The notes below the pieces were generated by a model. That model searched no databases. It was given only the letters and a program-made list of their open reading frames with translations, and was not told where the DNA came from. A DNA stretch of 58,055 nt. Origin: an uncultured Pseudomonadota bacterium (GTDB lineage Bacteria > Babelota > Babeliae > Babelales > JACPOV01). Position 1 is the first letter of the stretch. The number at the start of each line of letters is the position of its first letter. Shown here piece after piece: positions 1,627 through 42,610 of the stretch. The DNA is taken from NCBI GenBank assembly GCA_964620245.1, contig CAZUJC010000004.1:1-58055 (forward strand), in the 5' to 3' direction. The position numbers and the translations under genes were made by a program.

Positions 1627-3033
1627 CTATTCTTGCTTTGATCTTTTTTCACTAGAAATAGTGTTGTTATTATTGTCCTCTAAAACACGCTTGTTGTTTT
1701 TTAAGTCTCTAAAATATTGTTTGTATTCATTGCCCGGTTCCCACACGTTAGCAATTTCTATTGCCAGATCCTCCGGAAAAGGTGGATTCGCACGTTGAAG
1801 TTGACGCTTCAGACATTGTTTCAGCTTATTTTTTTGCATAACCGGCTTTACCGTTGCATTGAACATTTTTTCATTATTTTCATCGTCACACAGTTTTTTC
1901 AACAGTTTTCGTCCAGTTTGATAGTATGCCAAGAGATCTACCATTGAATCATAAACATTTTTGAACTCGTTATTTTTTCCATCTTGGCTATACCTTAAGC
2001 TGAGTGTTAATAAATTGGCCACGAATTTTTCACTTTTAGGCAGTTTACAAGTTTTTTGATCTCTTATTACGTGCCAAGAAAAATCTGCCAAATTTGTGGT
2101 TCTTAACATGAGCGGTTCGTTGGGATAGGCACATACCAGCTCACTTAACGATTGCAGCACCTGCTCCATCAATAATTCGTGCTCTTTCCACTCATTGAAA
2201 CGAGTAAGCAGCAAATCTCCTTCTTTTTCTTTTAATGCAATCATCGTTGCACACTCTTTGCCCAAGCTAACGAGGTCACTTAGATCGGACTGCGGTTTTC
2301 CTGAAAATTCTTGCATAAATTGAGTCAAAAAAGCAGGTACTGACTTTATTTCATTTTTCGCGCGATCTAAATAGTCCACCACTTTTTTTCTATCCTCATC
2401 GGCAAGATTAAAATGAACCGGATCGTTAATTATTTGTTCCAAAATATCAATTTTGCGATCACCCCACGCATACTGGAACGCATTACGCCCAAACCAATCC
2501 CAAGGAGATGGCGCAATGGAAGGTTCTTTGCTCCATACTAAAGAACCTGGCACAAGACCATGTTTATCGAACGTTTCTTTGGTCATTATCAAGCCATCTG
2601 ACTGCTGCTTTATATTCAACAGCCGTTGCCAGCGCAGATCTTTAATCGAAAGATAGTCTGTAATTGATTCACCAATAGATAATTGGCTGTTTTTGAATTC
2701 TTCACGGTTGCCAGTTTTTGCTGCCTCAAGAAGGCGATAATAGTTACCCAATTTTTCATGAAATTCCTCCCCAATAAAAGAAAAAACCATATTTCCATTT
2801 CTATCTGAAGATAGGTAAAAGTTGTGTATAAAATTTTCATCTTGATCATGAAAATTCACAGTAAGTATATTGTCGATTATTCTGTGCCCTCTTATTCGCT
2901 TATCAACTAGCTTATTCTCGATTTTTTTATTAATATCTGCTTTTGTTTCTTTTTGTTCCATGCCAAAACCAATTGCAGATAAACAGAATAAAGAAATAGT
3001 AACAATGTGTTGTAAACAATAAAAAATACTCAT
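1627..3033 (-). CDS. secreted ankyrin-like hypothetical protein (paralog of 3175-4581)
   Basis: Signal peptide ending FG|MEQ; ankyrin-like LLEAAKTGN and GRNAFQYA; start moved to ATG 3033 behind a GGGGG SD. Confidence 0.75.
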   Translation of the reverse strand: MSIFYCLQHIVTISLFCLSAIGFGMEQKETKADINKKIENKLVDKRIRGHRIIDNILTVNFHDQDENFIHNFYLSSDRNGNMVFSFIGEEFHEKLGNYYRLLEAAKTGNREEFKNSQLSIGESITDYLSIKDLRWQRLLNIKQQSDGLIMTKETFDKHGLVPGSLVWSKEPSIAPSPWDWFGRNAFQYAWGDRKIDILEQIINDPVHFNLADEDRKKVVDYLDRAKNEIKSVPAFLTQFMQEFSGKPQSDLSDLVSLGKECATMIALKEKEGDLLLTRFNEWKEHELLMEQVLQSLSELVCAYPNEPLMLRTTNLADFSWHVIRDQKTCKLPKSEKFVANLLTLSLRYSQDGKNNEFKNVYDSMVDLLAYYQTGRKLLKKLCDDENNEKMFNATVKPVMQKNKLKQCLKRQLQRANPPFPEDLAIEIANVWEPGNEYKQYFRDLKNNKRVLEDNNNNTISSEKRSKQE

Positions 3034-3057: not shown

Positions 3058-4666
3058 AAAAAAATAAAGAAGTAGTTATTGTAGATCTATTTTTAATAAA
3101 TTCAAACTAAAATAATCATACGATTCTGTTTATTAATAAAAGCATTTTAATTTCGTATCGCGATTCCATAATTTTCAATCACAATCGTTTTCATGCTTTT
3201 GCTTTTTTTCGAGGCCTTGATCGCTCTTGTCTTCCAATTTCCGTTTTAGATCTGGCAATTTTCGAAAATAGTTTTTATATTCTTCATCCGGTTGCCAATG
3301 AGCGGCAATCGATGCGGCGATATCTTTGACAAATGGAGGATTTGCACACGTCAATTGCCTTGCAAGAGCGTTCTGGAACAATATTTTTTGCATAAATGGT
3401 TTTATTGTCGACACAAAGACGTTATTGTTGTTTTTGTCATCACACAGTGCCCTAAGCAACACTTTGCCATCGCCATTGCGTACCAATAAATCGAGCATAT
3501 CATAATAGATTTTATTGAATTCTTTATGAGTAAGATTTTCTGAATGAAACAAACTAAGCGCTATTACATTTGCAAAAAACTCTTGCGCTTTATTTAATGA
3601 ACGCAATTTTTCGTCTTGTGCAATTCTGTATGAAAAGTGCACTATATTTTTAGGCAGAAACGGTTTTTTTAAATGTGGGTACAAACGCATTGCTTCGCAG
3701 AGTGTCTGCACAATGTTCACCGTTAACATTTCATATCGCTTCCATTCATTAAAACGACCAATAAGAGCCTCCCCTTCTTTTTCTTTAAAAGCAATGAGCG
3801 ATGCATATTCTTTACCCAAACTACCAATACCCAGCTTATCCAATTGATCACATTGAGAAATATCACGAACTGTGTCACGCATGTTTGACAGAAACGCTTC
3901 TTCCTCCTTCACTCTTACCAAAAGGTCTTCTATTTCTTTTTTTTGCTGCGAGTCGATAGCAAAAACAGAAGGGTGCTCGATCATTATTTGTAAAATATGG
4001 TGTTTATAGTTGCGCAATGCATAGTCAACTGGAGCAAAGCCAACAGTGTTATTGTATGGAAATGGTGCAAGGATAGGATTTACGCTCCGTGCAAGCCTAA
4101 ATTGGTTGCCAGGCATTAGATCTTCCAATCTACATATTTTTTGATCAGAAGAGCGCAGAATATTAAAACAAACTAAAAACAAACGATTATCTTTTATATT
4201 TCCTTCTATTTGCTCATCGATCAACAAACTCTTAAAATCTTCCCACCTGCCATCGCGTGCAGCATCAAAAAGAGAATAATGTCTTGATAACTTTTTAAGT
4301 TCATCAATGGTATCGACCGGAGTTAGAACTAAACAATGATCTTTGTTCTTACTCACACAAAATCTTAATGCCAAAGCAGGATTGAATCCATTATCTACCA
4401 TAATCAACATTGAATTTTCCAAGCCTTGAAAGCTCAATATCTGTCGATTATCTATCAAATCAGCAAATTCTTCGTTTCGCTGTCTGAATGATTTATTTGG
4501 CTGTTCCATGCCAAAAGAAAAAACATGCAGAAAAAAAATAAAAACGGTAGCAATTCGCTGTACGTAAAAATAACTATTCATGAGCCCCACCAAAAAAATT
4601 GTCAAAAAAATAAAGAGGAGCTTAGTGTAAATTTATTTTAAATAAATTCAAATTAAAAATAACATG
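3058..4666. repeat. duplicated ~60-bp upstream element (3058-3118 and 4604-4666) of the two tandem paralogs
   Basis: aaaaaaataaaga...tgta.at.tatttt.aataaattcaaa.taaaa is present in both intergenic regions. Confidence 0.7.
3175..4581 (-). CDS. secreted ankyrin-like hypothetical protein (paralog of 1627-3033)
   Basis: Shares SLGKE.A..IA.KEKEG..L..RFNEWK, LCDD.NN and ANPPF with its neighbour; signal peptide ending FG|MEQ. Confidence 0.75.
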   Translation of the reverse strand: MNSYFYVQRIATVFIFFLHVFSFGMEQPNKSFRQRNEEFADLIDNRQILSFQGLENSMLIMVDNGFNPALALRFCVSKNKDHCLVLTPVDTIDELKKLSRHYSLFDAARDGRWEDFKSLLIDEQIEGNIKDNRLFLVCFNILRSSDQKICRLEDLMPGNQFRLARSVNPILAPFPYNNTVGFAPVDYALRNYKHHILQIMIEHPSVFAIDSQQKKEIEDLLVRVKEEEAFLSNMRDTVRDISQCDQLDKLGIGSLGKEYASLIAFKEKEGEALIGRFNEWKRYEMLTVNIVQTLCEAMRLYPHLKKPFLPKNIVHFSYRIAQDEKLRSLNKAQEFFANVIALSLFHSENLTHKEFNKIYYDMLDLLVRNGDGKVLLRALCDDKNNNNVFVSTIKPFMQKILFQNALARQLTCANPPFVKDIAASIAAHWQPDEEYKNYFRKLPDLKRKLEDKSDQGLEKKQKHENDCD

Positions 4667-12360: not shown

Positions 12361-13245
12361 ATGAGAAAAATAATATTTTTATTAACGTTAATGATGAGTT
12401 TAGCACAATATAAAAATGCTAATGCAATGGAAAATGAGCAAGAAAACAAGACAAATAATGTAAACTTGCCTTCATTATTACTCTGCAGCGAAACTCTTGA
12501 GGGTTCACCATTTAAGCCTAACCAAGGCCATCAATCACCGGGAAAAACAAAAATAGAAAATCCTGTAACCAGATCCACGAAGGCCAAAGCTCGCTTGTTT
12601 GAACCAGACAACGAAGTAAATGCTATCTTTCCTGGCGGAAAATTTAATGACGAACTTCAACACAAAAAAAGAAAGCGTCTCTACACTTTTGCTGAAAAAA
12701 TTGAGCGAAATGAACAAACCGTACATCAAATTCTAAAAGATCTTGCAGAAAATGCGGAGTATGAAACTGCTATAAGCGTCCTCGCTACTATTGAAAACAA
12801 AAAACGAAATGATAAATTTATTAATGAAATCAAAAAATTTATCGGTGGAAGTGACACAAAAAATGGAACAGCAGGCAATAAAATTAAACAAGTGCTCAAT
12901 AAAGAAGAATATAAAGACCTCGATGTAAATAAAATAATCCTTCATGTTTGTAATTCTAAAACGCAAACTGCATCTAACGAAAGCCTTCTTAATATTGCGG
13001 TACATCTAAAAGCAAAAAATCTATTTCAATATTTGGTTCAAGAGCGCGATGCTGATATTTCACCAAGCACTATAGTTCTTGCAGAGCAAAATCCCGGGAA
13101 TCATATTCTTCGAATTCTCTATGAAAAAGGGCTAACATCAGTTGCCCCGGCACATCCCAACTCCGTCACAAAAAAATGGAGCTCTGATAAATCAAGAAAG
13201 CGCGCTGAGTCAATTCCATTATTTACGCTCGTTGATCGAAGATAG
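12361..13245 (+). CDS. secreted hypothetical protein with NLS-like and ankyrin-like segments
   Basis: Signal peptide NANA|MEN; HKKRKR; SLLNIAVHL...YLVQERDADI. Confidence 0.75.
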   Translation: MRKIIFLLTLMMSLAQYKNANAMENEQENKTNNVNLPSLLLCSETLEGSPFKPNQGHQSPGKTKIENPVTRSTKAKARLFEPDNEVNAIFPGGKFNDELQHKKRKRLYTFAEKIERNEQTVHQILKDLAENAEYETAISVLATIENKKRNDKFINEIKKFIGGSDTKNGTAGNKIKQVLNKEEYKDLDVNKIILHVCNSKTQTASNESLLNIAVHLKAKNLFQYLVQERDADISPSTIVLAEQNPGNHILRILYEKGLTSVAPAHPNSVTKKWSSDKSRKRAESIPLFTLVDRR

Positions 13246-23810: not shown

Positions 23811-24121
23811 ATAATTTGTTCTCCTACATCAAGAATAGAAAGTGCAAAATGATGATTATTTATCGTAATTGCAAATCGATTTTTTGTAAAGATGATCCCA
23901 GCAGCGGCTCATTTTTATCAATTTGTAGGTTATAAAAGAGCATTAGTATCATCGCAACAAATGCATATTTGAATTTTTTGTTATGGATTGATTTGAAATT
24001 ATTTATTTATAATCATCAAAGAGCATATTTAATTTTCATATATTCAACAAAGCTGGTGTATACTTTTTACAAATCTGTTATGTTGGATAATTGTTTAGGG
24101 ACACATAATTTAATTTTTCTT

Positions 24122-41640: not shown

Positions 41641-42216
41641 ATGCAGGTGTTTCTTGGTGTGAATAAATTGTGCACAGTTGTTGCTTCCTATTCGCCGATT
41701 GTGCGGTATTGTTTAACTATTCTTGTGCTTTCAGTTGTTGTTTTTTCTTGGTTCAAAGGACCATATCAATGGTTGAACAACTATAAGCAACAGATTGATA
41801 CTGATAGAATACATATACAAAAGATCATTCAATCAGGTGATCAAGATGAGCATTGTTTGCAAGAATTACATGCATCATGTTCATCACTTAAGCGAGAAAT
41901 GAAAGAATTCAATTATCTTGCCAACAAACAATCGGTCGATTGTTTGTTGGCAATTTTAAATTGTGCACAAGTTAACGGGCTAACAGTTGAATCATGCTCA
42001 AAACAGTATGAAAAAGAAAAAGTTTGGTGTCAAAAAAAGGGTTATTCATACATGTTGAAAGGAAATTTTGCCCAGTTTTTTAATTTTTTTAATACGCTTA
42101 ACGAGCAAAAAAAATTAGTTCGTTGCAAAGAATTTTCGCTTGAAAAAACGGGAGATCTCTTAAGAGCGCATGTAGTTTTTGAAACAATGATAATTAAAGA
42201 TGAAGCATATGCTTAA
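41641..42216 (+). CDS. pilO: PilO-like type IV pilus assembly protein
   Basis: TM helix, coiled coil and LKGNFAQFFNFFNTL motif; overlaps a PilP-like gene. Confidence 0.65.
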   Translation: MQVFLGVNKLCTVVASYSPIVRYCLTILVLSVVVFSWFKGPYQWLNNYKQQIDTDRIHIQKIIQSGDQDEHCLQELHASCSSLKREMKEFNYLANKQSVDCLLAILNCAQVNGLTVESCSKQYEKEKVWCQKKGYSYMLKGNFAQFFNFFNTLNEQKKLVRCKEFSLEKTGDLLRAHVVFETMIIKDEAYA

Positions 42217-42460
42217 ATTTTCTGCAATTATTCTTGCACACTTTTTTTTTGCTTTGTGCGTAGCTGAATCGTTACGTGATCCTTTTTCGCTTCCAGTGAT
42301 GATGAATGAAGAGAAATTAGTAGTGCAACACACGCAAATTGAAACAGCAGAAAAAAAGCTGGAAGTTAAAGCAACTCAATGGGAAATCATCAAACAATTA
42401 GAAGACGGAACTACAATTATCAAGAAACAAGATGGATCAATTTGTAAAGTTAAAATTTAA
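42200..42460 (+). CDS. small PilP-like exported protein
   Basis: Signal peptide followed by LRDPF; lies downstream of the pilO-like gene. Confidence 0.5.
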   Translation: MKHMLKFSAIILAHFFFALCVAESLRDPFSLPVMMNEEKLVVQHTQIETAEKKLEVKATQWEIIKQLEDGTTIIKKQDGSICKVKI

Positions 42461-42472
42461 GATTATCCAAAT

Positions 42473-42506
42473 AAAAAACCCTCCAACTTTGTTATAAGCT
42501 GAAGGG
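42473..42506 (-). terminator. minus-strand intrinsic terminator of the candidate sRNA
   Basis: CCCUUCAGCUU/AAGUUGGAGGG (11 bp; the two G-U pairs form only on the minus strand) followed by U6. Confidence 0.8.
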
Positions 42507-42575
42507 CTAGGGGGGTGAACAATACATAAGATTGTATTGTTCGTTTAGGGACACTTATTAAATTTCTTCAATTCA
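42473..42575 (-). ncRNA. candidate ~100-nt small RNA
   Basis: Bounded by a consensus promoter (42582-42610) and a terminator (42473-42506); perfect 10-bp internal hairpin; no ATG-initiated ORF of useful length. Confidence 0.75.
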
Positions 42576-42581
42576 ACGCTG

Positions 42582-42610
42582 ATCGTAGCAGCCCAAAAAA
42601 GGGTTGTCAA
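42582..42610 (-). promoter_or_regulatory. sigma70 promoter of the candidate sRNA
   Basis: TTGACA-N17-TACGAT with an extended -10 TG. Confidence 0.8.

Follow-up and report, generated by a model that had tools for sequence, protein, structure and literature searches.

The small RNA gene and its surroundings

The window, meaning the whole stretch of 58,055 nucleotides analysed here, belongs to Ca. Babelota (TM6/Dependentiae), and its minus strand carries a predicted small RNA of ~104 nt (42473..42576), defined by its fold, its homologs and a covariance model. Along that strand the order of elements is promoter, AU-rich leader, seed 1, hairpin, linker, terminator and U6, and all of the following coordinates refer to it. 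The sigma-70-type promoter (42582..42610), recognized from its letters and from the homolog loci, has an extended -10 element of the form TTGACA-N14-TG-N-TACGAT, in which TTGACA (42610-42605) and TACGAT (42587-42582) are separated by a 17-nt spacer carrying the TG; the 1.04-Mb genome contains just two instances of the strict pattern. Seed 1, GUCCCUAA (42545..42552), is single-stranded, and its predicted partner is an AGGGA/AGGGG site close to the 5' end of lon's leader. It is followed by hairpin 1 (42517..42542), which has 10 bp here, a 9-bp core in the family and a variable loop. The linker after the hairpin, a C-run, is seed 2, ACCCCCCUA (42508..42516), and its predicted partners are the poly-G Shine-Dalgarno (SD) sequences of lon, ftsA and amiC. 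The gene closes with an intrinsic terminator of unusually conserved sequence (42473..42506), composed of an 11-bp stem (42479-42506) and the U6 tract (42473-42478).

An earlier note, made from the letters of this DNA, had described a minus-strand unit with a promoter, a hairpin, a terminator with U6 and two unpaired C-rich motifs flanking the hairpin. Our analysis found each element at the positions claimed, and both motifs were computed to be unpaired (p 0.92-1.0, the last linker base excepted). The fold of the ~104-nt RNA has a z of -4.7, and none of 200 shuffled sequences was equally stable. Rfam 15 gave no match in the window at the gathering threshold, and by E-value the best local match was PyrR (23.3 bits against a cut-off of 54, E 0.33). 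No second copy was found in the genome.

The gene sits between a divergent membrane protein gene and a convergent pilP-like ORF of 83 aa (42209..42460, plus strand), which is context only and closes an M23 peptidase-pilO cluster. The pilP label is inferred from position, and Pfam returned no match for the ORF, the end of which lies 12 nt from the U tail of the RNA. The pilM/pilN-like genes are found 3-4 kb from the RNA, and in some relatives a secretin gene follows the M23-pilO cluster.

Conservation of the RNA across Babelota

A homolog search in relatives, which the earlier note had proposed as a check, recovered the RNA widely. BLAST at E<=0.1 found homologs in 54 of 61 relatives, 52 of which proved real on inspection, and a covariance model detected the RNA in 143 of the 151 phylum genomes that were at least 90% complete, with one strong copy each, recovering five that BLAST had missed. 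The homologs are 89-157 nt long, the variable part being the AU-rich 5' leader. A pattern scan of GTDB genomes yielded at least 120 loci; the informative titles among the matches listed were Dependentiae, Babeliales, TM6, Babelota and Vermiphilus, the others being generic labels. One of the 120 loci, L137, was rejected as a chance match. The cultured Vermiphilus pyriformis (CP074345.1) carries the linker-terminator motif of the RNA, while viral contigs gave no matches. The range of the RNA, as far as the pattern scan goes, is drawn from these at least 120 loci and may extend beyond Babelota.

The alignment of 51 homologs argues for a selected structure. In total, 97.4% of the stem cells are paired, as compared with 34-49% in slid controls, and 10 pairs are altered on both sides, which none of 500 shuffles matched. 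Hairpin 1 shows compensatory changes in seven of its nine pairs, with 99.1% of the cells paired, and RNAalifold recovers the same two stems. The many G-U pairs, together with the U tail for the terminator, assign the RNA to the minus strand. The strict promoter precedes 51 of the 52 homologs and, in an independent set, 114 of the 120 pattern loci. In a further independent set, 116 metagenome loci picked on the 5' half alone and counted only where the flank sufficed, the promoter was present in 102/109 and the terminator in 112/113.

Seed 1 is kept in 113 of the 120 pattern loci, and the C-run of the linker is invariant among the aligned homologs. Three homologs (L049 in genome G011, L172 and L098) have lost seed 1 while keeping the hairpin, the C-run and the terminator. 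The lon gene of G011 has a G6 run plus an upstream AGGGG. Because these homologs keep the C-run and the lon gene of G011 keeps its G-runs, seed 2 appears to be the indispensable seed.

The genes next to the RNA do not suggest a regulatory leader. The next downstream gene is convergent in all 51 loci having an ORF (in a second set, short loci included, in 104/113), and its kind varies among pilO/pilP, M23, secretin, clostripain, atpA and exonuclease genes. Since the downstream gene is convergent and of differing kind, the RNA is not a leader, and a cis-regulatory leader or riboswitch was rejected for want of a co-oriented downstream gene of consistent function.

We also considered known housekeeping RNAs and chaperones. 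The Rfam 6S model (RF00013) found nothing in five genomes (G000, G001, G020, G027 and G053), and a 6S identity was rejected, as the RNA forms two local hairpins over ~100 nt and not a ~180-nt rod with a central bubble. Replacement of tmRNA or SRP RNA was rejected because both are encoded elsewhere; the tmRNA at G000 C29:6443-6811 was found by Rfam and missed by ARAGORN. The earlier note had also proposed a look for ProQ/RocC or Hfq. Pfam detected neither Hfq nor ProQ in any of five genomes, with positive controls.

The RNA thus shows what characterizes the C-rich, chaperone-independent small RNAs: its own promoter with an intrinsic terminator, a conserved unpaired C-rich seed, conserved G-rich sites at the ribosome-binding regions of the predicted targets, and a host in which Pfam found no Hfq or ProQ (five genomes). 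As for expression, one metatranscriptome contig (X20, 42396-42577), the only one of five lying wholly on a 19.9-kb stretch, ends 1-2 nt from the predicted RNA start; this contig is unstranded, has a depth of 3 and overruns the terminator by 77 nt, into pilP. In RNA run X19 the neighbouring genes were covered and the RNA itself was not. The X20 contig is a weak hint of expression.

Taken together, it is nearly certain that this is a real, new and phylum-wide family of small RNAs. The Babelota RNA is a core, single-copy gene of the phylum.

Poly-G Shine-Dalgarno sequences of lon, ftsA and amiC

Predicted targets were screened in this genome, G020 (main contig) and G143, representing three families, over 346-354 reciprocal-best ortholog sets. 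Genes were called with a simple home-made script and mRNA accessibility was ignored; the long-C-run branch was covered by targeted gene starts only, outside this screen. For the linker, lon ranked first among 346 sets (p 1.6e-5), ftsA second and amiC seventh, their identities coming from Pfam, and none of 40 shuffled seeds did as well. No gene other than lon has a G5 SD in each of the three genomes.

We then assembled 55 lon leaders (50 of 60 matched genomes and 5 more), of which 46, from 21 families, belong to RNA-bearing genomes. In these the G-run is the SD itself, 2-10 nt ahead of the start codon, with at least four G in 46/46 and at least five in 42/46, or 40/44 when the two discovery genomes are set aside. 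The G5 background is 37/940, 7/685 and 11/989 genes (3.9, 1.0 and 1.1%), and the G4 background 5-9%. A G4 run was found in none of eight second Lon paralogs (three from RNA-bearing genomes), and G5 in none of the lon genes of eight unrelated bacteria outside the phylum. Nearly every Babelota genome searched has two Lon paralogs, as in G000 (C7:4451-6808 and C13:7221-9665), and the poly-G SD belongs to the first only.

The other two predicted targets show the same tendency. In 17 RNA-bearing genomes from which ftsA was fetched by position, G4 or longer occurs in 14 and G5 or longer in 9; for amiC in RNA-bearing genomes the counts are 10/12 and 5/12. Extra ftsA and amiC cases found through the G6 pattern were left out of these counts because they are biased. 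The ftsA of our own genome has G3 only (rank 112/948), and the amiC of G143 has G2. At L303:5615-8262 (G143) and in L197 (G020), dnaA is immediately preceded, in the same orientation, by the amiC-like amidase gene, and this one in turn by a C39-like peptidase gene that also ranks high for the linker (3/346).

A seed-1 partner (AGGGA/AGGGG/TGGGAY) is present upstream in 25 of the 46 lon leaders, as compared with a background of 6-9%. In many lineages it lies at the very 5' end, often just (~10 nt) after the putative -10 box. On the lon mRNA of our genome, seed 1 is computed to pair at the upstream site with -13.5 kcal/mol and seed 2 at the SD with -16.1. Though seed 1 is near-invariant, its screen revealed no target conserved in all three genomes, and when 61 genomes were searched with its pattern, none of the families among the 30 loci inspected came up in more than one genus. 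The seed-1 screens, run over three search windows, gave only matches of the rplT type, which were rejected as coding-constrained. The ktrB/trkH genes, which had looked conserved in two genomes, were also rejected, with AGGGA(C/U) in 5/30 leaders (four of them AGGGAC), as was a tolA/tonB-like gene, the G5 of which stems from the Gly-Gly codons of an overlapping upstream gene and is not preserved among 20 loci.

Two further observations concern promoters and sigma factors. Many lon promoters (L387-L416) have CTTGTTTTT ~15 nt before a TACACT/TAGAAT/TAGACT box; this -35 variant, unlike the TTGACA of the RNA, is possibly a regulator site or a sigma preference. An rpoD-like sigma factor gene (G000 C8:10524-12668) has the SD AGGGG in two of the three genomes and is first in the seed-1 ranking for the -25..0 window.

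Co-variation of the G-runs with the RNA

The G-runs tend to be shorter where the RNA was undetected. On lon, G5 or longer occurs in 4/9 RNA-undetected genomes versus 42/46 RNA-bearing ones, and on ftsA, G4 or longer in 2/8 versus 16/20 (G022, with G3, is outside this tally); Fisher tests overstate such contrasts, since related genomes are not independent. The amiC genes of five RNA-undetected genomes have G5, G4, G2, G2 and G1. On a quick Lon tree, the reduced G-runs form three lineages, G084/G093, G064/G126 and G030/G046. The four genomes that have G5 on lon without a detected RNA are G025 (96% complete), G064, G151 and G002. Of these, G025 retains the G-runs of lon, ftsA and amiC alike, G064 has G5 on lon alone, and the genera of G002, G151 and G025 also hold RNA-bearing members. 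Assembly gaps are a plausible cause of the missing RNA in G002 and G151; in G025, where the RNA was undetected, the stretch read stops just short of the expected site. Lon sites with G7 are found only together with a longer, U-less C-run linker (6/14 versus 0/32), a C7/G7 match that corresponds to a single change on the quick Lon tree.

The RNA-undetected genomes were searched by model, pattern, promoter and synteny, and these searches gave only one weak candidate, in G126. This look-alike (L447, G126 C1:135414-135505) is diverged and has the family layout. The lon SD of G126 is AAAUGGAGG, a non-poly-G sequence, and the linker of the look-alike is its perfect 9-nt complement, with a computed -13.1 kcal/mol versus -4.9 for the consensus linker on the same site. 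The model E-value is 0.59, which is not significant, there is no synteny support and no match to the ftsA of G126, and the pairing with its own lon is only narrowly ahead of that with other lon leaders (-13.1 vs -12.8). A co-varying partner in G126 is therefore suggestive only, as judged from the sequences.

Targets proposed in the earlier note

The earlier note had described a trans-acting repressor coordinating competence with secreted effectors, seed 1 pairing with the comEC leader and with the genes at 12361 and 55923, and seed 2 with the clostripain gene and the gene at 3033. The pairings exist. Seed 1 matches comEC over 12 bp (24093-24104) and the 12361 gene with one G-U pair (-16.3 kcal/mol), and the 55923, clostripain and 3033 pairings are of 7 bp each. 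Among 948 genes of the genome, the seed-1 ranks are 1 for comEC, 8 for the 12361 gene and 48 for the 55923 gene, and the seed-2 ranks are 3 for the 3033 gene and 12 for clostripain.

The proposed regulon, however, is not supported. The comEC site is found in 2 of 30 comEC loci, both from the same genus as the source genome, and matches of that length also arise with 17 of 500 shuffled seeds. Homologs of the 12361, 55923 and 3033 genes are absent from two other Babelota genomes, and the best clostripain matches in both of these genomes lack the G-run. The trans-acting, stand-alone nature of the RNA, with C-rich motifs that most likely pair with G-rich ribosome-binding sites, is the part of the proposal that we retain; competence and effectors as its regulon are not.

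Within the window, 1627-3033, 3175-4581, 12361-13245 and 55003-55923 encode proteins that are specific to the lineage and whose signal-peptide-like start ends in 'ME'; for the three proteins of this type that were checked, neither of the two other genomes has a homolog. As orphan genes carry G5 SDs about twice as often as the others, it is possible that secreted proteins were recruited locally into the regulon. The comEC gene was found in 60/61 genomes, indicating that these parasites retain DNA-uptake genes, and competence control would be at most a lineage-specific addition.

Discussion

Given the position of the conserved G-runs at the SD, where pairing is assumed to repress, we consider it reasonably probable that the Babelota RNA is a chaperone-independent, anti-SD small RNA that represses lon, ftsA and amiC. 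The 3' end of the 16S rRNA is canonical, CACCUCCUUU, and the linker CACCCCCCUA corresponds to the anti-SD sequence of 16S with C replacing U. The computed pairings differ accordingly. On a poly-G site, the linker reaches -13.2 kcal/mol versus -9.8 for 16S; on a canonical site, it reaches -5.8 versus -11.6. The unpaired C-run would thus pair with the poly-G SD and block translation of lon, ftsA and amiC, outcompeting the ribosome on GGGGG while sparing canonical AGGAGG. The ribosome could still read GGGGG through a G-U pair, so that poly-G SDs would be translatable and yet tagged for competition. The hairpin may hold both seeds exposed, and in roughly half of the lineages seed 1 would make a further contact, close to the 5' end of lon's leader. 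Strong G-C pairing could replace a chaperone, which would make the latter dispensable, as reported for 6C (PMC6486639) and RsaE (PMC2790875).

Among the alternatives, the one that fares best is a protein-binding or decoy RNA, which would engage a ribosome component or a factor that binds C-rich RNA, with the poly-G of lon, ftsA and amiC maintained for some other reason such as strong or specially tuned initiation. The terminator stem is conserved in sequence beyond the needs of termination, the RNA has three CCCU repeats, 6S RNA was undetected by Rfam in 5/5 genomes, and lon has retained G5 in four genomes in which the RNA was undetected, all of which would agree with such a role. However, canonical GGAGG is the stronger SD, yet lon has poly-G over 21 families, and the G-runs are reduced in genomes with no detected RNA. 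Moreover, the fold is unlike the long rod of 6S, and tmRNA and SRP RNA are encoded elsewhere. We regard this explanation as rather unlikely.

The RNA may instead pair with the same G-runs and protect or activate the mRNAs, for instance if it kept an exonuclease away from the 5' end of lon's leader. The seed-1 partner of lon lies at the very 5' end, ~10 nt past the putative -10 box, in many lineages, and 5'-end protection has a precedent in the C-rich RoxS, for which it has reportedly been described. On the other hand, the conserved G-run coincides with the SD, 2-10 nt ahead of the start codon, a position at which pairing normally prevents initiation, and the data on ftsA and amiC cover the SD site only. 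This possibility seems to us a minor one, and somewhat less probable than the decoy.

It is quite improbable that the locus is a cis element, either the terminator or an antisense RNA of the convergent operon. The neighbour is convergent in 51/51 loci, often ending within 30 nt, and the X20 contig reaches into pilP, as such an element would predict; but the neighbours change while the RNA sequence does not, the G-U pairs and the U tail place the terminator on the RNA's own strand, and a mere terminator would require no promoter of its own and no invariant single-stranded seeds. Finally, a RocR-like repressor tying competence to secreted effectors, as the earlier note proposed, is scarcely credible: the 12-bp comEC match does rank first of 948 for seed 1, the RNA often has pil genes as neighbours (in one family comEC-clostripain), and G5 sites are commoner on orphan genes in our genome (21/358 vs 16/582), but the comEC site is confined to 2/30 loci, the G-runs of pilin and clostripain are absent from the other screened genomes, and no ProQ/FinO protein was found.

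The repressor that we favour resembles several known RNAs. RepG of Helicobacter pylori is said to be a small RNA targeting a G-repeat that is variable and lies within the tlpB mRNA leader. The Babelota RNA would likewise read a leader G-repeat, whereas its G-run is the conserved SD of a housekeeping gene over 21 families, and Rfam gave no match between RepG and the Babelota RNA. RsaE/RoxS of Staphylococcaceae and Bacillaceae is also ~100 nt long and Hfq-independent, and its unpaired UCCC, a motif contained in seed 1 as well, blocks ribosome binding; it differs in having metabolic targets and no sequence or Rfam match (PMC2790875). In Babelota, by contrast, a non-canonical poly-G SD appears to be what selection rests on. 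The actinobacterial 6C RNA shares conservation over a wide clade, C-rich single-stranded seeds and Hfq/ProQ-free G-C pairing, and its targets include core cell-cycle genes (dnaB), as predicted here for division genes, while its C-runs are in hairpin loops and those of the Babelota RNA flank a hairpin (PMC6486639). The two further differ in phylum and predicted targets, and Rfam gave no 6C match. RocR of Legionella is a short small RNA of an amoeba-associated bacterium, also with a seed and a terminator hairpin, but it depends on RocC, a ProQ-domain protein, and its repression is directed at DNA-uptake genes (PMC9674577). Babelota have no ProQ domain by Pfam (0/5 genomes) and no ProQ/FinO-domain partner was found, nor a conserved seed box in DNA-uptake mRNAs as judged from comEC, which has no conserved site. 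The Babelota RNA would work like 6C, RsaE/RoxS and RepG and belongs to none of these families by Rfam score.

Our literature search, with subscription papers and supplementary motif tables outside its scope, found no small RNA of Babeliae, Dependentiae, Babelota or TM6, and a term look-up in PMC4378268 and PMC12172432 found none either. In PMC9577009, small RNA control of lon is a computational prediction in Actinobacillus, the only such case that we found.

Base-pairing small RNAs are usually confined to narrow clades. That this one is kept by ~95% of the surveyed genomes of a phylum made up of reduced parasites of ~1 Mb is out of the ordinary and points to a regulatory role that is essential. 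The covariance model, in addition, doubles as a phylum marker. The conserved predicted targets belong to proteolysis and cell division, not to competence. If the RNA were abundant, less Lon, FtsA and septal amidase would be made, in keeping with a replication body that grows without dividing; a lower Lon level may fit too, for example by sparing replication factors, as known from other bacteria.

Late division, after growth as large bodies or filaments, is described for Babelota (PMC4378268, PMC6561590). The Babela study reports ftsA mRNA at all stages of the cycle, with ftsZ appearing late, and no gene that would explain the cycle (PMC4378268); delayed division is a named open problem. It is tempting, if still speculative, to propose a phylum-wide 'poly-G Shine-Dalgarno code', in which a single core RNA mimicking the 16S anti-SD, with one U-to-C change, would silence lon, ftsA and amiC in a coordinated way and thereby serve as a developmental switch delaying septation to the end of the intracellular cycle. 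Should the repression prove true, the RNA would offer a handle on why the protist-parasitic Babelota grow large before dividing.
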